Shown one piece after another: positions 15,998-37,796 of a stretch of DNA of 64,000 nucleotides (the stretch's first letter is position 1; the number at the start of each line of letters is the position of its first letter). Source of the DNA: Escherichia phage phiWec188; the sequence record LC739537.1; one strand, written 5' to 3'. Below the pieces are notes generated by a model. It was not told the DNA's origin, made no database searches, and worked only from the letters and a program-made list of their open reading frames with translations. The position numbers and the translations under genes were made by a program.

Positions 15998-17779
15998 GTG
16001 ACACACATTATAACGAAATATGGATTTGATGTTGATCTTAGCAGGGAAGGGCACACTGGCTGTCCACGCTGCATGAAAAATGGCAAGGATCGCTCTCGTA
16101 ATAACCTGATGGTTTATGGATTGGATTCTAACGGTGAGCATAAAGGAGCCAAATGCTTTGCGTGTGAGTACACAATCCCCAGCGTTGAATGGTTAAGAGA
16201 GAATGGTGAAGTTTTAGAAGAAGAGGAGGATATTGTGGGTTCGGAATTTAATAAAGAGATTCATCGTAAGATTGTAGAAGAAACAGGCACTAACCCACGA
16301 GGCTACCGTGGGATCAAGGAAGAATATTCTAAATTCTACGGTGTTCGTTACCAGTATAAACAAGAAGAATCTGGTGTTGTTGTGGAACATACTTTGTATC
16401 CAACAACTATCGGTAAAGAACTGGTAGGTTTTAAGCGTCGTATCCATCCTAAAGACTTCTCCAAGCCCATTGGTCAAGTAGGTAAAGATGTAGATTTGTT
16501 TGGACAATTTCGTTTCCTTGAACGTTCCCACACCGTGATCATTACTGGTGGTGAACATGATGCCTTGGCAGCATATCAAATGTTGGCAGAAGGTCTTGAC
16601 AGAAAATATGAATTACCAGCGGTAGTTAGTGGCACAACTGGTGAAACCAGTATGTATAAACAGGTACAGGCACAGTACCCTTTCTTTGAGAAGTTCAAGA
16701 AGATCATCGTCTGCATGGATAATGATAAGGCAGGTAAGGAAGCTTTTGAGAACATTGTAAAAGTGTTGCCTCGTAATAAAGTTTACCTGATGAAGATGGA
16801 ACTGAAAGATGCCAATGAATACCTGTTGCAAGATAAAGCAAAAGATTTTGTGAAGGCTTATTGGGCTGCAAAACTTTATACCCCAGCGGGTGTTTATGCT
16901 TCGAACGAACTCTATGAAGCTGCAATGGACTGTCTGGATGCACAAGTGATCACCCTTCCTCCGTTCATGCGTACTGCTGCGAACATGTTGGGTGGTGGTC
17001 TGGTAGAAGAAGAGATCACAGTTATTCTGGCTAAAACGAGTATCGGTAAGACGTTGATGGTGAATGAGATCACCAAACACATTATCGTAGCCCATCCAGA
17101 ACATGTGTTGGGTATTCTGTCCCTGGAAGCAACGTATAAGAAATACTCACGTAACCTTCTTTCTTCGTTCCTGCATATTCCTTTGCATCGTAAGACTAAG
17201 GAAGAAAAGGCTGCGATCCTGGAAGAGAACAAGGAAGCTATTAATAACTTCTACGTTCGTGAAGATGGCTCTCCTCGTTTCTTTGTTTGTGATGACCGTG
17301 GTGCAGACATTGATTCAATCAAGGAGAAGGTGCTGGAGATGATTATCTACTTTGGCATTACCATCTTGGTAATTGACCCATACTCGGATCTGTTGTCGGG
17401 GATGAGTGTTCAGGAACAAGAAGAGTTGGCAACGTGGTTGAAGCGCATCATGAAAGAATACGGCATTACAATCATCGTGATCTCCCATGTTAAGAAAGCT
17501 GCGAACAATGGTAATGAGCACTTAACCGAAGATGATGCAATGGGTAGTAGCTTCTTGGCTAAAGGGGCAGGTATTACACTGGCACTGGAACGAGATAAGA
17601 GTCATGAAGACCCCGTTATGAGAAACACCACTATGTGCTACATCCTCAAAAACCGAGAATTTTCGGAAACTGGTCCGGCTGGGGAGTTTTATTACGATAT
17701 TAAAACTGCCACGCTACACGACAAAGCACAGTATTTTGCTAACCCTGATAATGCAGGTGGTGCAGAAGGCGCGTATTGA
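15998..17779 (+). CDS. bifunctional DNA primase/helicase (T7 gp4-like)
   Basis: N-terminal CPRC...CFAC zinc ribbon, central TOPRIM-like region, Walker A (AKTSIGKT) and Walker B (LVIDPYSD) of DnaB-type helicase. Confidence 0.8.
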   Translation: MTHIITKYGFDVDLSREGHTGCPRCMKNGKDRSRNNLMVYGLDSNGEHKGAKCFACEYTIPSVEWLRENGEVLEEEEDIVGSEFNKEIHRKIVEETGTNPRGYRGIKEEYSKFYGVRYQYKQEESGVVVEHTLYPTTIGKELVGFKRRIHPKDFSKPIGQVGKDVDLFGQFRFLERSHTVIITGGEHDALAAYQMLAEGLDRKYELPAVVSGTTGETSMYKQVQAQYPFFEKFKKIIVCMDNDKAGKEAFENIVKVLPRNKVYLMKMELKDANEYLLQDKAKDFVKAYWAAKLYTPAGVYASNELYEAAMDCLDAQVITLPPFMRTAANMLGGGLVEEEITVILAKTSIGKTLMVNEITKHIIVAHPEHVLGILSLEATYKKYSRNLLSSFLHIPLHRKTKEEKAAILEENKEAINNFYVREDGSPRFFVCDDRGADIDSIKEKVLEMIIYFGITILVIDPYSDLLSGMSVQEQEELATWLKRIMKEYGITIIVISHVKKAANNGNEHLTEDDAMGSSFLAKGAGITLALERDKSHEDPVMRNTTMCYILKNREFSETGPAGEFYYDIKTATLHDKAQYFANPDNAGGAEGAY

Positions 17780-17862: not shown

Positions 17863-20460
17863 ATGAGTAAGTTTACATGGGATATTGAAGCAACCGCATT
17901 ACTGAACAATGACACAATTGATTACCTGGCAAGCCCTTATCGATTGAAAGACACTTTTGGTATGCATTGTATTTGTCTGGAAAACCACGAAACAGGAGAG
18001 ATCATTGCTTTTCACGATGGTCCTAAGTACATTTTCGATGGTCGTCCTTATGAAGAGTCTGACGGTAAGTACACTTATGTACTGAAGGAGTATGTGGCAC
18101 AGGAATACACACACTTCCCTCTGGCAGATTTTCCAGATTTTGTCAACCATACAGGTAAGTTCGCAGATAAGCCTGAATACCTCGTAGAAATGGCTGTAGC
18201 CCATAACGGCATCAACTATGACCACTTGGCAGTTAAGCTTTACTACGGGCTGAATTACAGCGTTAAATACAACACTTGGGGTGATTCGAAAGTTAAGATT
18301 ATTGATACCTTAATCCTTAGTAAAGTATTGAACCCTGATCGCAAGGTTGATGGTAAACCTGGACACAACTTGAACGCCCTTTCTAAAAAAGCTGGCGGGG
18401 ATGTTAAGATCGATTTCCGTAAAGAGATTCCAGAAGGAGAGCGATTCAAGACGTTCGCCGCAGATATGTTGTACTACTGTATCTACGACAACAAGGCAAC
18501 TACAGCAGTATATTATTACCTCATGGAAGAATGGGGTGATTATAAGAAGTGGCAAGAGCCGTTCGACTTGGAGCAACGTATTGCGGATATCATCACCCGT
18601 CAAGAACACCGTGGCTTTAAGTTCAACATGCAACAAGCTGAACAGAACCTGGAATTCTTGGACAAAGAAATGGAACGTCTACGTTTGTTGGTAGAGCCTA
18701 TTCTTCCACCTAAGCCAGCAACTAAAGGTTATCTGAAAGATTTTATTCCACCGAAACTTCAGATCAAGAAGAACGGTGAGCCAACAAACCATATCATCAG
18801 GTTTGCGGAGAAACATGGCGGTAGCCTTGAAGAACGTGAAGGTGATTGGTGGCTGCTTGTTTTAGATAAAGAGTTTAAGTTACCGATCTCAAGTGAAGAA
18901 CCTATTTGTGAACCTACCATTCCGTCTACACTGAATGATACGACACACATTAAAAACTGGCTTGTAGGTTTGGGTTGGGTTCCGTCTGAATATAAAGACA
19001 AAGACTTGACGCTTAAATCTGGTTCGAAGATCAAGAAAGATCCTGACGACTTAGAGAAAGGTATTCTGTCTTATGTCAAACAAACTCTGGAAAGCAACTT
19101 CTGTAATGATCGTTGCGAACACTTACAAGCTGATGCTGAAACATTGGAGCTTAGAATCCGTGAACGTCTGGCTAAAGGGAAAGGTCGTGGTCTTAAAGTG
19201 CTGACCAACCCATGCTTCACGAAGGGACAGGAGAAAGAGATTTGTCCTAATCTTGAAGCACTGGGCGAGAAGTTCCCGTATGCCACGCAGATTGTGCAGT
19301 ACCTGACGTACAAACATCGTCGAAACTCTATTTTGGGCGGTGGTGCAGATTGGGAAGACGATGAGGAAGATCAAGAATACGATAAAGGCTTCTTAGCAGC
19401 AGTTCGTGCCGATGGTCGTATATCGACTCCAGCGGCTACGTGTGACGCTGCAACGTCTCGTATGAAGCATCGCTCTGTTGCGAACGTTCCTCGCGTTACA
19501 TCGTTGTTTGGGTACGAAATGCGTAACTTGTTTGGGGTAGAAACACCACGTTACTTCCAGATCGGTTATGACTTTGACTCCTTGGAAGCAAAGATTGAGT
19601 CGCATTATTGTTGGCGCTACGAGCCGGAGCCTCATGAATACTGTAACGCCCTCTTGTTAGAGAAGCCTAACGATGTTCATACCATGATGGCAAGGCGTAT
19701 CACAGAAACTATTGGACGTAAGTTTGAACGTAGTCCAGCTAAATCTGTTAAGTACGGGATTACATATGGAGCACAGGCAGACAAGGTTGCTAAGACAATT
19801 GGTAGTGATAAGTACACAGGGCAACTGGTGTTTGATGCATTCTGGGAAGCAGCTTTCCCGTTAGCACAACTTAAAGAGAAGTTGAATGCTTTCTGGGTTA
19901 ACACTGGTAAGCAGTATGTTCTTGGTATTGATGGACGTAAAGTACCAACACGATCTGCACATGCAATCTTAAACTCACTGTTCCAAAGTGGCGGGGTTAT
20001 CTGTGCTAAACGTGCAATGGTGATTTATGACGATATGATCGAAGAGGAGGGTTTGGCTGTTGACTTCTTCGTTGATGACTGGAAGAATAAAGACTTCGTT
20101 CAGCAAATGATTGCTTACCACGATGAAGCGCAGCTTGAAGTATCTCGTAACCTGGTAGAATTTAAATGGTTCTCTAAAGAATCTTTGGGCTGGGTTAAAG
20201 TGGATGATGAGAAAGAGCAGAAGAAAATAGATGCAGAATGTCTTGCAAAAGCTAATGAATGGAAGCATAATAAAGAGAAAGAGACAGGGCAGATTTGGGC
20301 TAACGTTCACGAATCACCTAAAGGTGGTTGGTTTACCGCTTATAGTCGTGCCGGAGAGCTTGCTTCTCTTGCTGTTATCAAAGCTGGGGAATATTACAAG
20401 CTAAATGTTCAGCTTACTGCTGGATACGATGTTGGTAGTTCCTGGGCAAGCTGTCACTGA
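17863..20460 (+). CDS. family A DNA polymerase with 3'-5' exonuclease domain
   Basis: Exo I WDIEAT; pol motif A YDFDSLEAKI, motif B RSPAKSVKYGITYG, motif C YHDE. Confidence 0.85.
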   Translation: MSKFTWDIEATALLNNDTIDYLASPYRLKDTFGMHCICLENHETGEIIAFHDGPKYIFDGRPYEESDGKYTYVLKEYVAQEYTHFPLADFPDFVNHTGKFADKPEYLVEMAVAHNGINYDHLAVKLYYGLNYSVKYNTWGDSKVKIIDTLILSKVLNPDRKVDGKPGHNLNALSKKAGGDVKIDFRKEIPEGERFKTFAADMLYYCIYDNKATTAVYYYLMEEWGDYKKWQEPFDLEQRIADIITRQEHRGFKFNMQQAEQNLEFLDKEMERLRLLVEPILPPKPATKGYLKDFIPPKLQIKKNGEPTNHIIRFAEKHGGSLEEREGDWWLLVLDKEFKLPISSEEPICEPTIPSTLNDTTHIKNWLVGLGWVPSEYKDKDLTLKSGSKIKKDPDDLEKGILSYVKQTLESNFCNDRCEHLQADAETLELRIRERLAKGKGRGLKVLTNPCFTKGQEKEICPNLEALGEKFPYATQIVQYLTYKHRRNSILGGGADWEDDEEDQEYDKGFLAAVRADGRISTPAATCDAATSRMKHRSVANVPRVTSLFGYEMRNLFGVETPRYFQIGYDFDSLEAKIESHYCWRYEPEPHEYCNALLLEKPNDVHTMMARRITETIGRKFERSPAKSVKYGITYGAQADKVAKTIGSDKYTGQLVFDAFWEAAFPLAQLKEKLNAFWVNTGKQYVLGIDGRKVPTRSAHAILNSLFQSGGVICAKRAMVIYDDMIEEEGLAVDFFVDDWKNKDFVQQMIAYHDEAQLEVSRNLVEFKWFSKESLGWVKVDDEKEQKKIDAECLAKANEWKHNKEKETGQIWANVHESPKGGWFTAYSRAGELASLAVIKAGEYYKLNVQLTAGYDVGSSWASCH

Positions 20461-23473: not shown

Positions 23474-23505
23474 AAGAAAGGAGCCATTTGGCTCCTTTTC
23501 TTATT
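23474..23505. terminator. bidirectional terminator (AAAGGAGCC-ATTT-GGCTCCTTT, flanked by A-run and T-run)
   Basis: sits between the convergent plus-strand early block and minus-strand structural block. Confidence 0.6.
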
Positions 23506-26173
23506 TATAACCCGAAGGAATGCTGTTATAGTCAGAAAGTTTTGTGCAATATCTAAACAGGTAACTGTTAGCTGCACCTCCTAACGTGGTTGTTAATGTC
23601 ACACCTGATCCAGTCAAATTGGTACATCCACTAAAGAATGAAGATAAGGCTCCACGTTTACCACAAACTGTTAATCCTGGGTTGTCATTAAAGATTTTAT
23701 TAAAATCTGTAAGTGCTAAACAACCTTGGAACATAGCTGTGAAAGAAGTTACTTTCGTCGGAATATCATCAAACATTCCTACTGGAACTTCTGCCAAAGC
23801 CGTACAATCTTTAAAAGTGTAAGAGTATCTTGTAACTTTAGATAGATTCTTAAACAAATCGGAAGGAATAGACACCAAAGATGTGCAACCTTCAAACGTA
23901 CTTGACATTGTTGTTATCGAAGGGAACAGAGTGTCACTAAACAAACCTTCAGGAACAGCTTTCAAACTTGTGCAACCAGAGAAGATACCGCTCACAGATG
24001 TTCCAGTATAAGATGTATTGCTAAAACAATCTGACGTTATTCGTCTTAAGTTGACACAACCTTTCAAGAATTGCGAAGCTGGGCTTGTAGAATAACTAAT
24101 TCTGTTACCGCCCCACAGTTCTAAAAGATTTGGGTTTGCTTCTACAGACACTTCAACACTATTAACTACAGCAGCACTTGCAAAGTCAATAGCCAGTCGA
24201 TATTCTCCTGCTGGATAACTATCCACTGTAGAAAAAGCTTTGTTTCTAAATATCACTTTATTTGTAGGAACTACAACGTCGTCCACCTTAACTACAAAGT
24301 TAGCTGGTGTGACAGTACCCGATAAATTTGGGAACGTAATCGCCCCATCTGTCGAGTGGTTGAAATATCCATTTAGAACCGTTAAACTACTACTCGGAGA
24401 TGGAGCTAACTCCTTTCCCGCGACAGCATTTACCGCTAAATAAGAACTATCTTCCGCAGTTACCACGCCTTGATAGGTTGCTCTACAACCAATACGACAA
24501 TCCCCATCAGTAACCGCTGTAATAACGCCTGTAACGGGGTCAACTGTTGCTACCGTAGGGTCGTTAGAGAAATACTCAACAACCATGCCAGGGAGGTTCT
24601 CTGCCCCTGCTGGAGTTATTTCTGCCACCAATGTCTGCGTTGTCCCTTCATCCATAGCTGAAAGACTTGGAGTATACACTTCCAACGTTGAAGCATAACC
24701 TCCAGAGCTATCTGATAAAGTTGTTCCTGCTGCGTTCAATGCTGTCATCCCTGCATCAAAACCACCTTCAGCAACAAACGTCATCAAACCAGAGGAAGAT
24801 ATCGTCATATAAGCTGGGGCAGATGTTGTGTAAGCTTCGTTGAAGAGCTTACCTCCTGAAGGACTTACTGAATAGGTTAACTGTTTGGTCCCACCAACAA
24901 TACAAATACCTAAAGAATCTGTAGACAATCCTGTTGCCAGGGTAGTCCCTGTTACAGTATCTGTAGTTATAGGCGAGAAAGATGTAGAGTTAAGACCGCT
25001 GTTGAACAGGTAAGAAGCTTTTCCGTCTACCCAAGCACCGGAGTAGAAGAGGTTGCCATCGTACACAATGAAAGTTCCCTGGTAGCCCAACTGATTAGTA
25101 ACGTCCATATTGAGCGTGTGTACGCTTGTGAGCTTGTTAAGGTTCCAAGAGGCCACACCTTCAGGTTTGATTGGTTTACCGACTTGTAGTGGGTCTGTGC
25201 TCGCAGAAGCGTATCCTAAGCCAAGATTCGCTGTGTAGTTCTTACCAATGGCCCACAAAGTGTTATTTATCCCCACAAAGAAGGAATGTCTACTCGGAGG
25301 TATTACCCATGATGTAAAACCTGTTGAGAAGTTCTCAAGCTTTGTATACGTTGTTGCCGTATTGGAACGAACATACAGGTAGTTTATTGATCCTGCCCCT
25401 GCTGCTGTATCTCCAATAACAATCGTTTGGGATACTGTGTTGATGTAATCCTTAACAAACACTGTTTCAGTAGCCGAGATTGTAGCTGTAACGAAGGCTG
25501 TGGTTGTACTGTTGTTCCCTGCAACCCCTCTACTTGTCCCGCACACACGAAGTGCTCCTACATTATTGAGGTAAGTACATTGGTTGTATCCTGCATCAAA
25601 CGCCAAAGCAACGCTTGTTATCTGACGTGGAGTAGATATTTGGTTTGTGTTACTTGAACCTAAACTCCCAACAGTATTTTGTCCTGATCCGTAGAGAACT
25701 CCTGTTGTCATCAACCACAACGTGTTATTGTAACCCCCCTTGACTTCTTTCAAGTTGGCTAAGGTGATTGTTCCTGTAATTGAAGATGGGAAACTTGTCC
25801 AAGAAGTCGCACAAACATCTGATCCTCCTGCGGCATTTGCACCTACCAAACCTGCTGTCAGTCCTGCGTATTGCCATCCACCGCTTTGTAGTTTAATAAC
25901 GAAGCAACGATCTGCTGTAAACACATCCGAAGCTACCGTTGAAGCCAGGTAGAAGCTATTGAAACGAGAGCTACGCGTTCCATCTGCGATCTCCCCAAAA
26001 AGGTTGGCACCTTGCATGAACAGTCGCCCATCGTTGAGCAAAAGGGCCAGACTACTGTTAGAATTTCCCGCGTTATCTGGGTAATCTAAAGTTATTACTT
26101 TCTTGACAATCCCTGCTGGAAGTGGTATTACTCCCGCATCTGTCATAATCATCATTACTGGGATTGGAAACAT
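23501..26173 (-). CDS. tail fibre protein with Ig-like (Big_2-type) domain and C-terminal BspA/DUF285-type leucine-rich repeats
   Basis: start set to ATG 26173 after GGAGG; repeated F-x-G-C-T-x-L...P...F ~25-aa units in last ~200 aa; TVATVDPVTGVITAV Big_2-like segment. Confidence 0.55.
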   Translation of the reverse strand: MFPIPVMMIMTDAGVIPLPAGIVKKVITLDYPDNAGNSNSSLALLLNDGRLFMQGANLFGEIADGTRSSRFNSFYLASTVASDVFTADRCFVIKLQSGGWQYAGLTAGLVGANAAGGSDVCATSWTSFPSSITGTITLANLKEVKGGYNNTLWLMTTGVLYGSGQNTVGSLGSSNTNQISTPRQITSVALAFDAGYNQCTYLNNVGALRVCGTSRGVAGNNSTTTAFVTATISATETVFVKDYINTVSQTIVIGDTAAGAGSINYLYVRSNTATTYTKLENFSTGFTSWVIPPSRHSFFVGINNTLWAIGKNYTANLGLGYASASTDPLQVGKPIKPEGVASWNLNKLTSVHTLNMDVTNQLGYQGTFIVYDGNLFYSGAWVDGKASYLFNSGLNSTSFSPITTDTVTGTTLATGLSTDSLGICIVGGTKQLTYSVSPSGGKLFNEAYTTSAPAYMTISSSGLMTFVAEGGFDAGMTALNAAGTTLSDSSGGYASTLEVYTPSLSAMDEGTTQTLVAEITPAGAENLPGMVVEYFSNDPTVATVDPVTGVITAVTDGDCRIGCRATYQGVVTAEDSSYLAVNAVAGKELAPSPSSSLTVLNGYFNHSTDGAITFPNLSGTVTPANFVVKVDDVVVPTNKVIFRNKAFSTVDSYPAGEYRLAIDFASAAVVNSVEVSVEANPNLLELWGGNRISYSTSPASQFLKGCVNLRRITSDCFSNTSYTGTSVSGIFSGCTSLKAVPEGLFSDTLFPSITTMSSTFEGCTSLVSIPSDLFKNLSKVTRYSYTFKDCTALAEVPVGMFDDIPTKVTSFTAMFQGCLALTDFNKIFNDNPGLTVCGKRGALSSFFSGCTNLTGSGVTLTTTLGGAANSYLFRYCTKLSDYNSIPSGYK

Positions 26174-26184
26174 TGTTATCCTCC

Positions 26185-26211
26185 ATAAAAGAAAAGCCCC
26201 TTGCGGGGCTT
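26185..26211 (-). terminator. intrinsic terminator (AGCCCC-GCAA-GGGGCT + U-run on minus strand)
   Basis: hairpin then TTTTCTTTT in transcript orientation, just after stop of collagen-like fibre gene. Confidence 0.55.
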
Positions 26212-26214
26212 CTG

Positions 26215-28260
26215 TTATCGTGTTACAACAACCATGTCCACGATATCGCCCACACCACAATACGTTAACTGAAGGATTGTTACAGCAGATGCTGCTGTGC
26301 CTACTTCCGTATCGTTAAGTGCTCCATAAGACGCATCCAGCGTCACGGTGTGTCCCGTTGTGTCTTGCAAAAGGTAAATCATTGCAGAGAAAGCTTTCGG
26401 TTTTGTGGTTCCTGTTACTCCAGGCCATGCTCCGATCGTCAATGCGTCTGTAACGTTCACCACGTACATGTTGGTGGCCCCAGAAGGAGTCCAAGCCGTT
26501 CCTGAACTTGCTACATTAGTTGTTTCCAACTCGATGTAACCTGCGCTGACTTTCGTTGGTGCAATCTCTTGGGTAGGATCGCTGCCACTGATTTCGATCC
26601 AATCTCCATCAGAACGTCCATAGGTTAAACCATCTTCAGGAGCTTCAGGAATGCTTGGAAGTGTACCAACTTGCGTCCAAACAGTAGCAGCGGTTTTCTT
26701 AAAGACCGCCCCTGTTGCAGTGTTGAAAGCGTAGTCGTCAATAACACCTTCGGCATTGGTTGGGTTGGTTGCAGCTACAAACCATTGCGCCCCGTCCTTA
26801 CCATCTGTTCCATCAACCCCTGGTGTACCGTTAGTTCCATCTGTTCCGTCAGTACCTGCTGGACCTGGATCACCCTTATCTCCTTTGTCACCTTTATCGC
26901 CTTTTATACTACCCATATCAACAAAAGAGGCGGTGTTCGTATCTTTGTCGTAAGTGTAAATATAAAGGTTACTGGTATCTTCTGTCAGATAAGCGTCACC
27001 ATAGTTGTTGTAGGTTGGTAGTGCAGAACCGCTTGGTACGTGACCTTTAGCAGTAATGGATGTTCCACCAAGACTACCCACGTTCATCCAGTCTGTAGCA
27101 CCTTCTACCCAAACATAAAGGTTGTTGTCGATAATATATGCATCACCAACTTCACCTGTTTCTGGGAGTTGAGATTCATCAGACAGAACGTCTAAGATTT
27201 CCAAGCCAGAGCCTGTTGCACCTACTGGGCCTTGTGGACCTACTTCGCCTTGATTTCCTTGTTCACCTTGAATCCCTTGATCGCCTTTCTCGCCTTTGAT
27301 TGCTGCGATAAAATCTACTTCCGTCCCTGTATTACCGATATCTAACCAAGATTGGTAAGCAGACTTCCCTTCGTCCCCGTCTGTCCCATCCAGCCCGTCA
27401 GTACCTGCTTCACCCTGCGGACCTTGTGGCCCAACAATGTTACCCATGTTAACCCAATCTTCACCGTTGGAAACATAAAGATATCCGGCGATAGAATAAG
27501 CTTGGCTTACGTTATTTGGGTTGGCTGCGGGTAAGTTGGCAGTAGATTCCAGATCTCCACGATAATCAAAACCATTGGCATTAAGACCTGCTGCCCCTTG
27601 TGGACCTTGAGGACCAACGTCTCCTCGATCTCCTTTCAGAGATGCCAGGTAGTCGTAAATTGTACCAGTATTACCTACTGACAACCATACCTGGTACGCT
27701 GACTTTCCTTCTGGACCCAGAGAAGAAATCATTTTCCAAGTTGCGCCGTCCCAAGCGTAAATTGCGTCTCCGACAATCCAACCATCTCCTAAAGCATTAC
27801 CTGTTGTAGGTAATTGGTTGATGTTGTTCAAAGATCCTTTGATATTCAATTGTGCGCCAGTGTCACCTTTAAGAGACGCTAACCACTGTTGTTCTGTTCC
27901 TACGAAACCATTATCCAGAGCAATCTGGTAGGCTGATTTCCCAGCTTCAGGGATTTGAGAAGAGATGTTATTGATCTCTTGCTGCATTATTGCAAAACGG
28001 GCATTAATTACTGCGATATCATCAGCAGTACCTACGCTCTCCCATCCAGTGGAGCTAATGCCGCCTGTGCTTGCCGGAGTAGAGTTCTCAGGAACAACTT
28101 TCGGAAAAGCACCTTTCCATTTATAATAGTTACCGTCATCATCTAAAAGCAGAACTTCACGGGCATTACGTAAAGTAAATCCCGCTGCAAAGCTTCGACG
28201 TTTACGGTACGTAGCTTCGACCATATCTGCAATCGAGCTATTCGGTCTTGTTAAAAGCAT
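26215..28260 (-). CDS. collagen-like repeat tail fibre protein
   Basis: multiple Gly-X-Y tracts (GDKGDKGDKGDPGPAGTDGTDG..., GEKGDQGIQGEQGNQGEVGPQGP...). Confidence 0.6.
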   Translation of the reverse strand: MLLTRPNSSIADMVEATYRKRRSFAAGFTLRNAREVLLLDDDGNYYKWKGAFPKVVPENSTPASTGGISSTGWESVGTADDIAVINARFAIMQQEINNISSQIPEAGKSAYQIALDNGFVGTEQQWLASLKGDTGAQLNIKGSLNNINQLPTTGNALGDGWIVGDAIYAWDGATWKMISSLGPEGKSAYQVWLSVGNTGTIYDYLASLKGDRGDVGPQGPQGAAGLNANGFDYRGDLESTANLPAANPNNVSQAYSIAGYLYVSNGEDWVNMGNIVGPQGPQGEAGTDGLDGTDGDEGKSAYQSWLDIGNTGTEVDFIAAIKGEKGDQGIQGEQGNQGEVGPQGPVGATGSGLEILDVLSDESQLPETGEVGDAYIIDNNLYVWVEGATDWMNVGSLGGTSITAKGHVPSGSALPTYNNYGDAYLTEDTSNLYIYTYDKDTNTASFVDMGSIKGDKGDKGDKGDPGPAGTDGTDGTNGTPGVDGTDGKDGAQWFVAATNPTNAEGVIDDYAFNTATGAVFKKTAATVWTQVGTLPSIPEAPEDGLTYGRSDGDWIEISGSDPTQEIAPTKVSAGYIELETTNVASSGTAWTPSGATNMYVVNVTDALTIGAWPGVTGTTKPKAFSAMIYLLQDTTGHTVTLDASYGALNDTEVGTAASAVTILQLTYCGVGDIVDMVVVTR

Positions 28261-28299
28261 TTATTTACTCCTGATTAATCATTCATTTATCGTTGGGAG

Positions 28300-28324
28300 T
28301 TAAAAAGGGGGACAAGCCCCCTTT
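28300..28324 (-). terminator. intrinsic terminator (GGGGG stem, + U-run on minus strand)
   Basis: immediately after stop of 1016-aa fibre gene. Confidence 0.5.
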
Positions 28325-28327
28325 CAC

Positions 28328-31300
28328 TTATGTCGTCGGAGTATCAATCACCGGAGTAGGACGAATTACCGCAGTGTTACCAACCGCAACGTTGCTTGAG
28401 CTATTAGGAATAGTTGTGATACGTACTCCTGCTGCTGTTGCTGTTTGGATAGGATCTGCAATATCCACCTTCACTGGGTTGGTCCAAGTGTCGTTATCCT
28501 GATAAGGGGCACGAGTGATTACTGTGTCCAAATCAGATCCGCCTGGACCTGCACCTGCGATACGGATACGTGTACCTGCTGACAGTGGGTAATGATATAA
28601 CCAAGAAGCATTTGTCGCTGTACCGTTAGGTGTCAGGTTCTGCACAATCGATTTATCACCAACATTTGTCGCTCGGATACCGAAGGCTGGAATGTCTGGG
28701 ATGTACGCACCACTTGTTGTTACAAGGAAGAACGTGTTGTCTGCTTTAACGATAATATCCCCTTTATCGAATTCTTTCCCTGTTGGGAAGTGCATCCCGT
28801 CAATGTTACGACCTGGGATTGCTTCGATGTAGTAAGATTTACCAGTAGAGCCTACCAGAGCACCAATACCACCTGCGATGTTCGTATACATGTTAGCTTC
28901 AACGTTACAGTTGATACGATGAATATCCGAGTAACGGCAACGACTCCATTGAGGACGTCCAGTTACCATTGTGTTTCCATTCGGGTAACAGTTTACGTTC
29001 ACCATCTCCAGAACTGACTTCTCTCTACGGAAGAATCCATCGTAGAAAGTACCTGGACCAGATTCAGGTTGACCCACACACTCGAAAGAGTTACAAGTGA
29101 TGTTTGCCATTGACAACCAAGAAGCGATACCAAACAATTGCAGAGCGTTACAACGGATGTTATCGAAGCTAACACGGTTCTCAAAACCTGGACCCGCTGA
29201 TACACCAGCGAACACACGACCTGTGGCAGTATGAACGTTACGTACCGAGTAGTTGAAGCAAGGGTTTGATGGACGACCCTGTGCAGGAACAACAGGTTTA
29301 CCGTCTTCACCTAAAACTGCGTTTGTACCCCATTCCAGATAAATCATACGGATTGCACTTGGCAACGTACTGTCGTCTGTAATAGGCTCACCATAAACAC
29401 CGTCGATAGTAAAGTCTTTACAACCGTACATTACAACAGCACCAGTTGCCAGACCTGTACCAACAGAAACTGTTTGGTCAGGATCGCCGTGGATGTTCTG
29501 GATAGAAATGTTACGACCAACTTCTACGTGAACAATCTGGCGGCAACGTTTCGCAAATACGTTACGGATTGTAATGTTCTTACAATACTGCGTATCTGGA
29601 ATGTCATAACCGTATGGACCTTTACCTGCTACACCGATACCGATACCCCAGTTGGAAAGAGGAATTGGTGCGTTCGTTCCGTCGATGTGAGACAAGTAGA
29701 TGTTCTCAATAACACAACCTTCATCGTAATGCTTGTTGATTACGTTCAGTTCGATTGCATCCCCTTGCATATCCATGAACGTCAAGTTACGGAAGACACC
29801 GCGACTAACTGGTTCACCAGTACCTTGTTGAAGGATACCGTAAAGTCCGTTTTTAAACGTACAGTTGTCAATCTCAAAAGTACCTGGAATTGGGTTGCCC
29901 TGGAATACCAAGCTACCAACCTGTCCGGCACGAGGTGCACCATCCCACAAGCAGTCGTAGATACGCACATCGCCACCCCAGTACATTACACGGGAGTTGC
30001 GGAAAGTTGTACCTTCCACTTTACAGTTTTGTAAACGGTAGTCACGTTGTCCACGGAAGACACCTCCAAGAAGGGTGATCCCAGTAATATCAAAAGAACT
30101 TGTAGTGAAGGTCATATCACAACCATAAGCATTCAGGATCTTGCTTTTGGTTGCTGCTGTTGCCACGAGAGCCGCTTGGAAAGCTGCTTCTGGAGTAGCG
30201 TACACTGCACTGTTTGCAAACTCGGACAGGTAAACAACATCAAACAGATCATCAAACTTACCACCGTGTGGAGTTAACAGACCTTCTGTGTTTGTCAGTA
30301 CCCAAGCATTTGGACCTACGCCGCCAGAGGAGGCAAGGGTATCACTTGCAGAGAGAGTTTTTGGCAAAGGGCCAGCCCAACGATAACGACCTGCACCCAT
30401 GCCGATAGTCTGGTGTTTGAGTGTCAGGGTAACTTCATTACCGAAGCTGGTAGGCAGATGTACATATTGCTGACGTTCAACTGCTAATGCTGCCAAGTCA
30501 ACAGTACCAGAAGAGTGGGTAAGAACACCAGTATCTGATAAGCTAACAAATGTCCCAGTTAAACCAGGTGGCAGGGTGTAAGCTATTTGGTTAGTGGCAT
30601 CATACAGGGCTTTCAGACCTACTAAAGCTTGTCCTGATTTTGCGTAAGCCACTTCATAATTCAGGAAACCATATTTACGAGCGATTGTCTGAAGAGGAAC
30701 AGCGTTCATATCTTCGGTCAATGTTTCAGTAGTTGTTTCCAGGTTAGAAATTCGGTTTTCGAGGTTAGGATCGTTTTCTGCGCTTGCTACAATCTTACCG
30801 ATGTAAGCAAACAACTGATTAGGTAATCCAGTTGCAGGATCGTGTCCAAGTGGTTCGGACAAGATGATCTGACTGTTCTCAATACGGAAGGCATCACCCA
30901 CAATCTGGATAACGCCGTTGATAGTCACAATAGCACTATCGAACACATAAGGAGGACTGATTACTTTTTCATAACCTGTTGCAGAGGTATACAGCCAAGG
31001 AATAACTTCACTTGGCAGTTGTTCAGTCTGCATTCCCCACAGCACCCAGTTATTGTCCCCGACTGGAGTCCCTTGCATTGGGATAGGGTTCACCAGTGTT
31101 GCTGCTGGAGCGTAGTAGTATCCACTCAAGATTCCGTTCTGATAGAAACGGAGTTGGTTGAATACTGTTTCATTGGTCCCTTGCGCCCAGGCAATAGGAC
31201 TTTTGAAGTAAAAGTTATCAACCAAAGCCTTACGTAAAGTCGGAATCAATCCTGATTCCGTGTCAATACTTTCTGTTGCGCTTCCGTTGATGATATCGTG

Positions 31301-31378
31301 TATCTGGTTAGAAGAGAAGATTACCAGATCTACGCCCTGTTCCAAGGACGTAGCGGGATATGTTGGGAATAGTGTCAT
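28328..31378 (-). CDS. large tail fibre/tailspike protein, probable beta-helix (depolymerase-like) central domain
   Basis: 1016 aa; Asn/Gly-rich repetitive beta-strand segments (IDNCTFKNG..., NITIRNVFAKRC...) typical of right-handed beta-helix. Confidence 0.5.
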   Translation of the reverse strand: MTLFPTYPATSLEQGVDLVIFSSNQIHDIINGSATESIDTESGLIPTLRKALVDNFYFKSPIAWAQGTNETVFNQLRFYQNGILSGYYYAPAATLVNPIPMQGTPVGDNNWVLWGMQTEQLPSEVIPWLYTSATGYEKVISPPYVFDSAIVTINGVIQIVGDAFRIENSQIILSEPLGHDPATGLPNQLFAYIGKIVASAENDPNLENRISNLETTTETLTEDMNAVPLQTIARKYGFLNYEVAYAKSGQALVGLKALYDATNQIAYTLPPGLTGTFVSLSDTGVLTHSSGTVDLAALAVERQQYVHLPTSFGNEVTLTLKHQTIGMGAGRYRWAGPLPKTLSASDTLASSGGVGPNAWVLTNTEGLLTPHGGKFDDLFDVVYLSEFANSAVYATPEAAFQAALVATAATKSKILNAYGCDMTFTTSSFDITGITLLGGVFRGQRDYRLQNCKVEGTTFRNSRVMYWGGDVRIYDCLWDGAPRAGQVGSLVFQGNPIPGTFEIDNCTFKNGLYGILQQGTGEPVSRGVFRNLTFMDMQGDAIELNVINKHYDEGCVIENIYLSHIDGTNAPIPLSNWGIGIGVAGKGPYGYDIPDTQYCKNITIRNVFAKRCRQIVHVEVGRNISIQNIHGDPDQTVSVGTGLATGAVVMYGCKDFTIDGVYGEPITDDSTLPSAIRMIYLEWGTNAVLGEDGKPVVPAQGRPSNPCFNYSVRNVHTATGRVFAGVSAGPGFENRVSFDNIRCNALQLFGIASWLSMANITCNSFECVGQPESGPGTFYDGFFRREKSVLEMVNVNCYPNGNTMVTGRPQWSRCRYSDIHRINCNVEANMYTNIAGGIGALVGSTGKSYYIEAIPGRNIDGMHFPTGKEFDKGDIIVKADNTFFLVTTSGAYIPDIPAFGIRATNVGDKSIVQNLTPNGTATNASWLYHYPLSAGTRIRIAGAGPGGSDLDTVITRAPYQDNDTWTNPVKVDIADPIQTATAAGVRITTIPNSSSNVAVGNTAVIRPTPVIDTPTT

Positions 31379-35468: not shown

Positions 35469-35737
35469 TACTCATCCTCTTTGTTGTGTTCAGGGGTGGA
35501 AGACCTACCCCAGCGCAGGTCTATTAGATTTTTCATTAGTCGTGAGGGAGTGACCATAAAAACAAAAGCCCAGCCCATCCATTCAGGAATTTCTTTTTCT
35601 ATTCCTAAAAAGATGAACATACCTGTCATTGTCATCATACCTACGGCGTTCCATACTTTAGTGGAACTTACCCCGTTTCCAGGGTAAGTACAAAACATTC
35701 CGCGAACAAACTTCTTAAACCCATTCTCTTTAGGCAT
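35468..35737 (-). CDS. small two-TMD membrane protein (holin-like topology)
   Basis: two hydrophobic helices and charged C-terminus; embedded in tail gene block. Confidence 0.35.
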
Positions 35738-37796
35738 AAACTGTATCCTGTAGGTAAACGTTTAAAGGAACATTGCCCATATAGAAAACTTGCGAATGAG
35801 AGTTGACCACAGTAATAGAGTCTTGCATTATTTGTGGGTAAGCCCATATATATTGCTTAAGACCTTCGAACTTGCTATTGTTCAGGACTATGTTCCCGAT
35901 GATCATTTTCCACAAATATGTGCGATAATTTGAATCAGGATCAAAGCCGTACAACGGTGCTAATGTGGCATCTGGTACGAACCCAGCCAAGTAGTGAATA
36001 TCTTCGTAAGGGAATCCCAAAGTCTCGTGCGGTATTGTTACGGCATCGTAGGCTTTAATCATCTTACCTTGAAGCAACCAATCATAACATTCAGAACAAT
36101 AGAAATCGAAAGCTTCTGGAATGTAGTAATCTTTAGGAAAGTTTACTTTCTCCATTAACCCGTTGCCAATGATCGAAGGTAAGAACGGAAGTAATGTCAC
36201 TTGAGCGCCTGGGTATGCAGCGCGTGTATCCGTTGCAAACTTGGTAACTCTCAAACCCAATTTACGAGACAAGAACTCGTAATACTGATCGTATGGGCTT
36301 CCTGTTTTATAGTTATCAATCGTCCCAGCATCTTGTGCAAACAAACCTGTTTCTGTATTGAAAGCCAGTTTTGTCGTATAATCATAAATGCAAGGCAGGT
36401 TGGTAGCTGTATTGTACCACCACCACGGTTCCCCAATTTGAATAACAACCGGAATGTCGTTAGTTGTGGAAATGGAGGCGATCTTGTTAATTACATTCTG
36501 AAGATATTGCATACCCTCATCAATTGTAGGAGACAACACATAGCTCGGAGGCACATAACCTGTAGCAGCTAAAGCATCGTTCCAATCGTGCTGCACCCAC
36601 TCAACAGGGCAGACTGTGCTCATCAATTCGAAACTCAAAGAGTTCATAACTGTGTAGCCGGAGGCTTTGGCGATTGCATGGAAGCTGTTCAACCACGCTT
36701 CAGTCGCTGGGTTAAGAAACACGGAAGTGTTTAATTGCCAGCCATCATTGCCGTCCCATTCAAACTGGTAGTAGTGCGACATTCCGTTGTAATGGTTTAT
36801 CATACCACGATACCCTAAAGCATAAGTGTTGGAAATAACACGTTCAGGGGTAAGATTATACATGTCATCGTAAGATGTGCACATACGAATATCGTGTGCT
36901 GCTTGCACCAAATTGCTAACGTCCATCTGACTAAACCCAGTGTCAGGTTCAAGCAAAGTGAATTTCATTGACGACTGCATATTGTTCATCTGAACAATTT
37001 CTGTTATGTCTTGGTAGCGTGTCGTGATCAATGAGAAGAAGAAATTGTCCACCTGTGTGGTGTCCACTTCAATATCATTGTTCGGTCCAGACTTAATATT
37101 ACTAAAGTCTAAGCGGATATCTGCTGTTTTGCCATCTTCTGATACATTGAAAGCATAATAACTCAAATCAATGTAGTGAATCGTCTTATCAACCAATGTT
37201 AAAGTAATAGTTGGGATCAACGGAGCATCATTGAACCCTGGCATGTTTGCACTAAGTTCTAATTTAAACCAGAGCTTCTCTTCACTTAAATCTTGGTGAG
37301 GAAGAAAACCTACGCCCTTATGATCAAAGGTGTCTGTTGTGTGCCAAATAACACCTGCCAAACCTGCTGCTGTACGGTTAACAAAGTACGCCGTAAAGGA
37401 ATCCCCACTGGAAATTATGGAACAACTCTCTGTTGCTTGGGAGTCGATAGTCCAGAACTTAGGAGAGAACATTTTAGCTTTGGTTGAGGTCCATGTAATC
37501 GGAGTGGTGTTCTCTTGTCTCGTCGTAATGACACACTCGATCTTGGTTTCAACCATCGTGTTGTTTTCGCTGATACCAGAAACTTCTAAAAAGAAGTTAA
37601 TATCTATTGAGTTTTTTGGTCGTTCGTAAACATCAACCACAATTGTTGCAGAGTCGGCGTTAGCAGGGAACACTAAGGTTCCCGACTTCGCTACATAATC
37701 TCTACCGGAGACTGCCGTTCCATCGACAGTCTTGTAGTTGAACGAACTCACATTTACTCGTTTGTCTCTTGTGACAGTAAATGTTGCCTGTTTCAT
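35730..37796 (-). CDS. tail/baseplate structural protein
   Basis: 688 aa ORF in structural block. Confidence 0.4.

Follow-up and report, generated by a model that had tools for sequence, protein, structure and literature searches.

A probable lateral tail fibre of Stephanstirmvirinae phages with a segmented collagen-like shaft and one tract that varies among close relatives

A collagen-like gene in a tail-fibre cluster

Does a phage gene that encodes several collagen-like Gly-X-Y tracts serve as a hotspot for host-range change, as the original prediction for this locus proposed on the grounds that such fibres are length-variable and recombination-prone? The gene in question lies on the minus strand of the window (the whole stretch of 64,000 nucleotides that was analysed), as an open reading frame of 681 residues at 26215..28260, with an ATG start and with the stop codon inside the end coordinate. 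It is identical to CDS BDU13745.1 of phiWec190 (DNA identity 100%), for which the name TfpM2 has been published (PMC12695924) and is used in Kaneko et al. 2025. Sequence comparison identifies it as the orthologue of phi92 gp151, phAPEC8_00179 and bas60_0036 of the BASEL phage PaulScherrer (Stephanstirmvirinae), the last of these being already annotated as a "lateral tail fiber protein with type I collagen domain". Homologues were found in 126 phage records, with 100% query coverage and 58–95% identity. Our preferred reading, to which we assign a probability of roughly 70%, is that TfpM2 is one of the lateral tail fibres of a Stephanstirmvirinae myophage, with a segmented collagen shaft, a foldon-like motif and a knob, and with the fourth tract as a spacer.

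Within the tail-fibre cluster the gene is preceded by an orthologue of the colanic-acid-degrading tailspike (1016 aa) and followed by another fibre gene. The same flanking genes are present in phiWec179, phAPEC8, phi92 and PaulScherrer, and the gene is syntenic across three genera. We considered whether TfpM2 and the 1016-aa tailspike might be recent paralogues and rejected this, as BLASTP showed that they share Tail_spike_N only (28% over 76 aa, E = 6e-4); PF26208, the phiTE-type N-terminal domain, sits on the tailspike and is absent from TfpM2. The assignment as a tail fibre is supported by the cluster, the Tail_spike_N domain, a phiTE-type C-terminus and the published TfpM2/gp151 genes. Two published results weigh against our preferred reading. 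The receptor work on phiWec190 points to R1 core galactose dependent on WaaT, and to YhaH, neither of which has been assigned to TfpM2. In a cryo-EM study of phi92 (2026), gp151 was not placed in any fibre density and its function was called uncharacterised (PMC13450770).

The gene had also been described as flanked by its own terminators, and a hairpin with a T-run is indeed found on each side.

28298..28321, minus strand: upstream GC-rich hairpin and T-run, between the 1016-aa tailspike gene and TfpM2 (stem-loop 28321..28308)
26182..26213, minus strand: downstream GC-rich hairpin (GCAA loop) and T-run (stem-loop 26213..26192)

The upstream hairpin falls within the 67-nt gap before the ATG, and the downstream one begins 2 nt past the stop codon. 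A region-wide excess of terminators was dismissed, since 10 terminator-like sites were found in the 10-kb region against 8.5 ± 3.0 expected. The two flanking hairpins were retained despite this count because their positions are conserved: both are kept in place in six phages of three genera, with differing stem sequences. At the position of the downstream hairpin, phAPEC8 carries an annotated predicted terminator. The upstream hairpin of phi92 lies directly against the ribosome-binding site, which means that in this phage transcription has to read through it to reach the gene. We regard both hairpins as putative terminators; to call them the gene's own overstates its independence.

The Gly-X-Y tracts

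Counting runs of at least 4 triplets, we confirmed the reported uninterrupted Gly-X-Y runs: four of them, of 6, 8, 10 and 13 triplets, starting at residues 210, 277, 323 and 454. Together they comprise 37 triplets, or 111 of the 681 residues. The string cited originally, GDKGDKGDKGDPGPAGTDGTDGTNGTPGVDGTDGKDG (aa 454-490), is the beginning of run 4. The run lengths are far beyond chance: across 2000 shuffled versions of the protein, the longest run had a mean of 2.7 triplets and was at most 8 in every case. The tracts and the modules that separate them are as follows.

26215..28260, minus strand: tail-fibre CDS, 681 aa, TfpM2 of phiWec190 (BDU13745.1)
28030..28230, minus strand: TSP1/gp66-type N-terminal domain PF18668 (Tail_spike_N), aa 11-77 (Pfam, 68.5 bits against a cut-off of 25)
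27955..28020, minus strand: single long helix, aa 81-102 (AF2 secondary structure)
27859..27948, minus strand: module A1, aa 105-134, motif GKSAYQ..G..GT...WLASLKG, two short predicted helices
27709..27855, minus strand: module B1, aa 136-184, beta node, motif LP..G..GD.Y....LY.W.G..W...G
27634..27708, minus strand: module A2, aa 185-209
27580..27633, minus strand: Gly-X-Y tract 1, aa 210-227, 6 triplets
27433..27579, minus strand: module B2, aa 228-276
27361..27432, minus strand: Gly-X-Y tract 2, aa 277-300, 8 triplets
27295..27360, minus strand: module A3, aa 301-322
27205..27294, minus strand: Gly-X-Y tract 3, aa 323-352, 10 triplets
26902..27204, minus strand: modules B3 (aa 353-399) and B4 (aa 400-453)
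26785..26901, minus strand: Gly-X-Y tract 4, aa 454-492, 13 triplets, (GDK)3-GDP-GPA-(GT[DN])n
26656..26784, minus strand: module B5, aa 493-535, degenerate beta node
26581..26655, minus strand: foldon-like motif, aa 536-560, SIPEAPEDGLTYGRSDGDWIEI (PDB matches to T4 fibritin/foldon chains)
26218..26523, minus strand: C-terminal beta-rich knob, aa 580-681, PF26209 (Phage_phiTE_241_C)

The Pfam Collagen family (PF01391) matched the protein at 53.2 bits against a cut-off of 27.2. Across 13 orthologues the tract glycine is kept at 399 of 399 positions, with identities of 51% at X and 61% at Y, and insertions and deletions in the tracts are whole triplets (multiples of three residues). Proline is scarce, filling 9 of the 74 X and Y positions. 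The protein holds eight KGD/KGE pairs, which are known to stabilise triple helices free of hydroxyproline. The NCBIfam scan returned only sub-threshold matches to collagen adhesins (Scl1/Scl2/Lcl); these mirror composition, and orthology to those adhesins was rejected. Two plus-strand open reading frames, at 26671..27021 and 26756..26953, with Pro/Ser/Leu-rich translations, were likewise set aside, since they only mirror the periodic GGN codons in antisense.

Tract length among related phages

The comparison of repeat number among related phages revealed that the four tracts behave differently, and that only tract 4 varies among close relatives. Every one of the 28 full-length homologues tabulated has 6 triplets in tract 1. 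Tract 2 has 5–11 triplets in orthologues (up to 16 in more distant homologues) and tract 3 has 8–10 in orthologues, both varying between clades only and being fixed within them. Tract 4 alone differs in length inside clusters whose members are at least 90% identical, and it spans 3–13 triplets over the whole set. Its differences are gains or losses of G[DE]K and GT[DN] units between fixed, conserved anchors, with DMGS[IL]K on one side and W[FIV]V on the other. Tract 4 overlaps an imperfect 9-bp tandem repeat (26869-26904, 4 copies, 77% matches), and a 9/18-bp tandem DNA repeat overlaps tract 3. Counted in triplets, the four tracts run 6/8/10/13 in this phage; the phAPEC8 group has 6/8/10/11 and the phi92 group 6/6/9/6-7. 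The claim of length variability therefore stands for tract 4, by whole triplets, and fails for tract 1, with tracts 2 and 3 confined to differences between clades.

Tract 4 is fixed in the sampled members of the phAPEC8 cluster (11 triplets, 14/14) and of the Wec cluster (13 triplets, 5/5), and in the phi92 cluster 2 of 15 members differ, by one triplet; the two most-sampled clusters are thus fixed or nearly so in its length (14/14 and 13/15). A hypervariable or contingency locus would be expected to have long perfect repeats, or targeted mutagenesis, and to change often between nearly identical genomes, by on/off switching or in its binding residues; what we found instead were short imperfect 9-bp repeats, in-frame changes and variation located in a spacer. 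Phase variation and DGR-type diversification were rejected, the repeats being imperfect, the changes all in frame and the knob not hypervariable. With such repeats, and with changes that all keep the reading frame, no on/off switching is to be expected.

A recombination joint in the foldon-like motif

The gene is mosaic, which bears out part of the claim that it is recombination-prone. Relative to the sister phage phiWec179, the phiWec190 allele has a recombinant 3' end. The joint is sharp and falls at codon 546/547 (~26620-26623), within the foldon-like motif, 54 codons past the end of tract 4 and outside the Gly-X-Y tracts. Informative sites for phiWec179 stand at 372 vs 33 before codon 547 and at 24 vs 46 after it (Fisher p = 4e-25). 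Beyond the joint, likeness to contig L002 runs on into the next gene. The joint ties the knob to a far more variable downstream fibre gene: in 300-nt windows TfpM2 is 85–98% identical to its phiWec179 counterpart, and windows of the downstream TfpM1 range from ~20% to 97%. In more distant homologues collinearity is lost at ~aa 475-524, near tract 4 and module B5, and the orthologue P0014 is without B5, with its junction at tract 4. As a sign of recombination near tract 4, this loss of collinearity is suggestive only.

These data bear directly on the proposal that the collagen tracts make the gene a primary host-range hotspot, through changes in repeat number and recombination inside the repeats. 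The length polymorphism of tract 4, present even among close relatives, the mosaic 3' end, the end of collinearity beside tract 4 and the P0014 junction are all in its favour. However, the sharp crossover lies in the foldon and not in a tract, three of the four tracts are invariant or fixed within clades, and the length of tract 4 is unchanged among the sampled members of two clusters. The gene is itself conserved and syntenic in three genera, and in published trees its clades agree with the genome phylogeny (PMC12695924). Moreover, these phages fall into two host-range groups that differ far more in TfpM1, the changes seen in the tracts allow no on/off switching, and an altered spacer length leaves the binding domain unchanged. 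We therefore consider a primary hotspot in the tracts unlikely. Tract 4 looks like an adjustable spacer, not the main host-range switch.

A bolder version of our preferred reading would make the distal tract an evolvable ruler that, as G[DE]K and GT[DN] units come and go, tunes the reach of the knob through the surface glycan layer of the host, and the conserved foldon a dedicated recombination joint at which the knob could be swapped together with the next fibre gene. We hold this to be improbable as it stands. If true, it would mean that fibre length and specificity evolve by two separate built-in mechanisms in one gene.

N-terminal domain, foldon-like motif and knob

A strongly conserved 24-residue N-terminus stands ahead of the PF18668 domain. 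The N-terminal domain matches CBA120 TSP1/3/4 and G7C gp63.1 in a PDB sequence search, and Foldseek returned the same structures. The predicted helix at aa 81-102 is a probable short trimeric coiled-coil neck. Module A1 leads into two Gly-X-Y triplets only, and the B nodes have three to four AF2-predicted strands per copy.

The foldon-like motif gave short, weak matches (E 1e-3 to 1e-2) to chains 1rfo, 1aa0, 1avy, 4ncv and 8udn. Counted by eye on the alignment, the motif shares 13 of 27 aligned residues with the T4 foldon, and AF2 predicts a beta-hairpin at aa 547-556. PF07921 (Fibritin_C) gave no match for the 681-aa protein in the local Pfam scan and is recorded for more distant homologues only. 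That scan (E <= 10) returned Tail_spike_N and Collagen alone, the local copy giving no PF26209 match; the support for PF26209 and PF07921 comes from precomputed matches and PDB profile searches. PF26209 is precomputed on orthologues P0001-P0014 and on the L002 gene. Homology to the C-terminus of the phiTE tail fibre covers the last 110-120 residues, and the family profile matches residues 683-791 of the phiTE tail-fibre chain 9cuy_g (E = 5e-16). The knob gave 127 BFVD matches at E <= 1e-3, among them phiTE K9L5R6, and it recurs at the C-terminus of a Vequintavirus "lateral tail fiber protein with glycosidase domain" at 48% identity (tblastn).

Some of these features could be read as those of a fibre on the head or neck, akin to fibritin or to a capsid spike and serving environmental sensing, assembly help or loose adhesion. 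The phi92 record lists a "potential capsid binding domain" in gp151, a Foldseek search matched the Pa223 capsid spike 9ny6 (E = 3e-4), and a foldon occurs in the T4 whisker protein fibritin. Yet the N-terminal domain is that of tailspikes attached to the baseplate, the knob is of the kind carried by the 793-aa phiTE tail-fibre protein and by lateral tail fibres of Vequintavirus, and the gene lies inside the tail-fibre cluster with a tailspike gene on one side and a fibre gene on the other. The TM-scores with the Pa223 spike are low (0.14/0.27). We judge a location at the head or neck to be quite improbable, somewhat more so than the hotspot.

Predicted structure

The structure prediction was an AF2 monomer run, and a triple helix is beyond its reach. 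The model is confident for the A nodes (two helices each), the B nodes, the N-terminal domain and the C-terminal knob (pLDDT 86–93); in all four Gly-X-Y tracts pLDDT is below 50, as expected for a lone chain, and the full-protein pTM is 0.26. Foldseek searches with the model returned G7C gp63.1, the CBA120 tailspikes and the trimeric Pa223 spike. That the tracts are instead flexible glycine-rich linkers between globular nodes, forming no triple helices, would fit the low pLDDT and the short (6–13 triplets), proline-poor tracts that cannot be hydroxylated, but it is very improbable: the three-residue glycine periodicity is kept in every orthologue while X and Y drift, indels come only in multiples of three residues, a simple linker needs neither property, eight KGD/KGE pairs are present, low pLDDT is what a monomer prediction gives, and triple helices have been demonstrated for similar tracts in phages (PMC3368898).

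Proposed assembly of the fibre

The preferred reading, a lateral tail fibre with a segmented collagen shaft, can be put together as follows. The fibre most likely assembles as a homotrimer. By homology, the conserved N-terminus and the TSP1/gp66-type domain would attach it to the branched fibre/baseplate complex. In the shaft, three helical A nodes and five beta B nodes are predicted to alternate with four short collagen-type triple helices, which would total ~32 nm if fully formed; the nodes probably keep these short, hydroxyproline-free helices in register. Trimerisation is probably nucleated, and its register set, from the C-terminal side by the foldon-like hairpin that follows the final shaft module, and the phiTE-type beta knob is the probable, putative ligand-binding tip.

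Tract 4 would serve as the distal spacer between B4 and the B5-foldon-knob segment. Its variation is observed; slippage or unequal crossing-over may be the means by which 9-bp units are gained and lost. Each triplet would shift the reach by ~0.86 nm and leave the binding domain untouched. Specificity would shift by another route, recombination at the conserved foldon, in which the knob and the variable downstream fibre gene would move as one cassette. The mosaic pattern at the foldon is observed, and such cassette exchange would be a source of specificity change.

The practical value of these results is modest. Tract 4 is the only part that changes length, the foldon is where alleles join, and TfpM1, not TfpM2, accounts for the bulk of the divergence that separates the two host-range groups. 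This may be useful for engineering Stephanstirmvirinae fibres or for placing phi92 gp151 in cryo-EM maps.

Comparison with known systems

The finding is an ordinary one and already known; it adds no new kind of system, because phage collagen-like fibres are well documented and orthologues of TfpM2 are already annotated as such. Its closest counterparts, phi92 gp151, phAPEC8_00179 and bas60_0036, are full-length orthologues at 58–79% identity. In phi92, phAPEC8 and PaulScherrer the gene order is the same, with the gene following that of the colanic-acid-degrading tailspike, and so is the order of parts: N-terminal domain, A and B nodes, four Gly-X-Y tracts, foldon and knob.

For tail-fibre proteins of E. 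coli prophages, experiments have demonstrated collagen triple helices accompanied by a trimerisation domain at the C-terminal end (PMC3368898). These proteins, EPclA-D of E. coli O157 prophages (Ghosh et al. 2012, PMC3368898), are side tail fibres whose collagen triple helix has trimerisation modules of non-collagen type as caps, among them a C-terminal one, and their modular domain shuffling has been attributed to recombination (PMC3368898). Their collagen domains, of which each has one or two, are longer and are combined with PfN, PCoil, PfC and Pf2 modules, whereas TfpM2 has four short tracts split by A and B nodes and a foldon-like motif; none of those four families was found in TfpM2 by the Pfam scan.

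In TfpM2, as in T4 fibritin and the engineered foldon-(Gly-Pro-Pro)n collagen chimeras, a 25-residue motif, in TfpM2 the foldon-like IPEAP.DG..Y.R.DG.W, lies on the C-terminal side of a fibrous segment that is trimeric, in TfpM2 putatively so. By analogy, the role of nucleating and registering the trimer is presumed to be common to the foldons of TfpM2 and T4 fibritin. Unlike in T4 fibritin, the motif of TfpM2 lies inside the chain, ahead of a knob of ~120 residues, and the match is weak. The likeness to the Pa223 capsid spike of Pseudomonas (gp52, 9ny6), which is attached to the capsid, has 294 residues and has no collagen tracts, is a resemblance of parts and not membership, because the TM-scores are low. 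The 793-aa phiTE tail-fibre protein (PDB 9cuy/9mjn; Phage_phiTE_241_N and _C) has a C-terminal knob homologous to that of TfpM2, but TfpM2 starts with a TSP1/gp66-type domain and not with the phiTE-type N-terminal domain (PF26208).

Collagen-like tracts and module organization of TfpM2

The fibre gene of the window (26215..28260, minus strand), published as TfpM2, starts at an ATG with an AGGAG ribosome-binding site 8 nt 5' of it and encodes 681 aa, the stop codon lying inside the end coordinate. The product is indeed a tail fibre of the segmented, collagen-like kind, a member of a known and already annotated family. Its features are as follows.

aa 1-24, conserved N-terminus of invariant and near-invariant residues
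aa 11-77, TSP1/gp66-type tailspike N-terminal domain (68.5 bits, cut-off 25)
aa 81-102, single long helix, predicted
aa 210-227, tract 1, 6 Gly-X-Y triplets
aa 277-300, tract 2, 8 triplets
aa 323-352, tract 3, 10 triplets
aa 454-492, tract 4, 13 triplets
Module A, three copies, GKSAYQ..L..G..GT...[WYF]LASLKG, two short helices predicted
Module B, five copies, the fifth degenerate, LP..G..GD.Y....LY.W.G..W...G, three to four strands predicted per copy
aa 536-560, foldon-like motif, SIPEAPEDGLTYGRSDGDWIEI, resembling the T4 fibritin foldon
aa 580-681, beta-rich knob, predicted (pLDDT 86-93)

The Gly-X-Y runs of the original prediction, whose quoted string belongs to tract 4, are confirmed: the four uninterrupted runs sum to 37 triplets (111 residues), and the Pfam Collagen model reaches 53.2 bits (cut-off 27.2). 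Chance does not account for them, as in 2000 protein shuffles the longest run had a mean of 2.7 triplets and was at no time above 8. Across 13 full-length orthologues the tract glycines were identical in 399/399 comparisons, while the X and Y positions were only 51% and 61% identical, respectively, and all indels within the tracts were multiples of three residues. These patterns are the signature in sequence of selection for a triple helix and argue against a loose linker. The tracts hold few prolines and many charged pairs, including eight KGD/KGE motifs; charged pairs of this type are known to stabilise hydroxyproline-free bacterial collagens. Comparable tracts in E. coli prophage tail-fibre proteins form stable triple helices by experiment, with a C-terminal trimerisation domain as the cap (PMC3368898). 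The AF2 monomer gave pLDDT < 50 in all four tracts, as is expected of a single chain. At 0.286 nm per residue, fully helical tracts would extend about 32 nm.

Two node types separate the tracts (C1-C4) in the shaft, in the order A1-B1-A2-C1-B2-C2-A3-C3-B3-B4-C4-B5. By eye, 13/27 aligned positions of aa 536-560 are identical to the T4 foldon; weak PDB matches to fibritin and foldon-tagged chains (E of 1e-3 to 1e-2) accompany a beta-hairpin predicted at aa 547-556. Two antisense ORFs within the gene (26671-27021 and 26756-26953, plus strand), with Pro/Ser/Leu-rich periodic translations such as PSLPSVPSTPGVPLVPSVPSVPAGPGSPLSPLSPLSP, were rejected as genes, being shadows of the GGN-periodic codons.

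Orthologues and repeat-number variation

The gene is 100% identical to one that the record of Escherichia phage phiWec190 (LC739539.1) lists as a hypothetical protein. A total of 126 phage records contain full-length orthologues. Those of the phAPEC8 group have 674 aa and about 76-79% identity, and that of the phi92 group, gp151, has about 58% identity and a tblastn span of 652-655 aa, against 653/656 aa in the protein clusters. The collagen-like nature of the family is already on record, since the orthologue of the BASEL phage PaulScherrer bears the name "lateral tail fiber protein with type I collagen domain" and NCBI names one cluster member "collagen-like protein". Kaneko et al. obtained clean TfpM2 clades for their own isolates, Phapecoctavirus and Justusliebigvirus (PMC12695924). 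The present analysis adds the module map, the finding that among close relatives only the distal tract is polymorphic in length, and the placement of an allele joint in the foldon-like motif. Near-identical or closely related fibre genes also occur in OR584014.1, OP562383.1, MG065682.1, MG065677.1 and Klebsiella phage ZCKP1 (P0127), whose genomes carry Pseudomonas, Acinetobacter and Klebsiella phage labels, and the knob is found in rV5-like genomes with a Campylobacter label; the host assignments seem questionable, unless unusual hosts were used for propagation.

Length variability, as expected in the original prediction, holds selectively. Tract 1 has 6 triplets in 28/28 full-length homologues tabulated, and tracts 2 (5-11 triplets) and 3 (8-10) vary between clades but not within any sampled cluster of at least 90% identity. 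Tract 4 can differ in length even within such a cluster: it has 13 triplets in the Wec cluster (5/5), 11 in the phAPEC8 cluster (14/14), 6 (n=13) or 7 (n=2) in the phi92 cluster, 6, 8, 9 or 10 in a further cluster, and 4 or 5 in yet another, one member of which lacks any run of at least 4 triplets. The 13-triplet allele of the window is the joint longest observed. Flanked in every case by two conserved anchors, DMGS[IL]K on one side and W[FIV]V on the other, the tract is made of G[DE]K units in a first block and GT[DN] units in a second, and neighbouring alleles lie one unit apart (one GTN between P0155 and P0157, one GEK between P0008 and P0138). In the DNA, the GDK block corresponds to a 9-bp tandem repeat, which is imperfect (26869-26904, 4 copies, 77% matches). 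Slippage or unequal crossing-over is the likely source of the length change.

A recombination joint in the foldon-like motif

The locus was aligned with the sister phage phiWec179 and a 142-kb metagenomic contig (L002), and identity was computed in 300-nt windows. Identity to phiWec179 is 96-99% upstream of the fibre gene and 85-92% inside it. The match to L002 improves, from about 70-80% to 88-96% identity, beginning with the last quarter of the gene and continuing into the downstream fibre gene, TfpM1. The informative sites change sides sharply at codon 546/547 (nt 1638 to 1641 of the gene), from 372 for phiWec179 versus 33 for L002 on the 5' side to 24 versus 46 on the 3' side (Fisher p = 4e-25), with additional switches near codons 590 and 641. 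The gene is thus mosaic, but the joint falls within the conserved foldon-like motif, 54 codons past the end of tract 4, and the Gly-X-Y repeats are therefore not the crossover site here. Weaker observations suggest that the tract-4 region may be a module boundary: collinear similarity stops at aa 475-524 in P0015-P0026, the next tier of homologues, and the orthologue P0014 is entirely without B5.

Flanking hairpins and neighbouring genes

28321..28308, minus (coding) strand, upstream GC-rich stem-loop and T-run
26213..26192, minus (coding) strand, downstream GC-rich stem-loop and T-run
28328-31378, minus strand, upstream tailspike, 1016 aa, orthologue of the phi92 gp150 colanic-acid-degrading tailspike
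23501-26173, minus strand, TfpM1, 890 aa, RCC1-like beta-propeller and Big_2 domain
15998-17779, plus strand, primase-helicase
17863-20460, plus strand, DNA polymerase A

Both gaps also contain a corresponding hairpin in phiWec179, L002, phAPEC8, phi92 and PaulScherrer, with differing stems and tetraloops (GCAA, GAAA, UUCG), and the phAPEC8 downstream site carries an ARNold terminator annotation. The hairpins behind the predicted flanking terminators are conserved in position, but the gene itself is probably transcribed by read-through, since in phi92 the ribosome-binding site almost directly follows the upstream hairpin and the window's gap upstream of the fibre gene showed no sigma-70-like promoter. 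The hairpins may be partial terminators or transcript-stabilising elements of a late operon. A further, bidirectional terminator-like hairpin (23476-23499, both strands) lies at the convergence point between the plus-strand replication genes and the minus-strand tail-fibre genes, where the GC skew changes sign.

Support for the proposal that TfpM2 is a host-range hotspot is weak. Three genera share the gene, in the same gene order and with moderate conservation, and the tract changes alter a spacer; the large group differences lie in TfpM1 and TfpL, which separate the phiWec179 group from the phiWec188/190 group (PMC12695924). Both groups require the R1 LPS core galactose added by WaaT, and the second host factor is flagella for one and YhaH for the other (PMC12695924). 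By sequence comparison, the real divergence of the locus is in TfpM1, where identity to phiWec179 ranges from about 20% to 97% across 300-nt windows. It is about 66-79% for most of the 5' two-thirds, briefly regains 94-97%, and drops to about 20-40% in the 3' third, which can barely be aligned; identity of TfpM1 to L002 is 83-95% over most of its length. TfpM1 is reported absent from Justusliebigvirus (PMC12695924). In the baseplate/fibre cluster, a 688-aa protein (35730-37796, minus strand) matches 'non-contractile tail sheath protein' N-terminal and TIM barrel Pfam families, with a Calx-beta domain; the sheath matches are surprising for a phage with a contractile tail.

Comparison with known tail fibres

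The aa 11-77 domain matches CBA120 TSP1/3/4 and G7C gp63.1, both by sequence and by fold. The knob is Pfam PF26209 (Phage_phiTE_241_C, precomputed hits), and 127 viral predicted structures resemble it at E <= 1e-3, mostly tail-fibre or uncharacterised phage proteins. The orthologue P0006 (Escherichia phage vB_EcoM_EP57, 512 aa), with tracts 1 and 2 only and a far shorter shaft, still has PF26209 recorded, suggesting that several shaft modules were lost in a natural internal deletion. The same knob (48% identity) terminates the Vequintavirus "lateral tail fiber protein with glycosidase domain". A profile of the family matches chain 9cuy_g of the 793-aa phiTE tail-fibre protein (E = 5e-16). In the upstream tailspike, PF26208, the N-terminal domain of the phiTE tail fibre, is combined with a WcaM-like domain and, internally, with a Tail_spike_N domain (aa 299-361). 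The N-terminal and C-terminal domains of the single phiTE protein are here divided between two adjacent genes.
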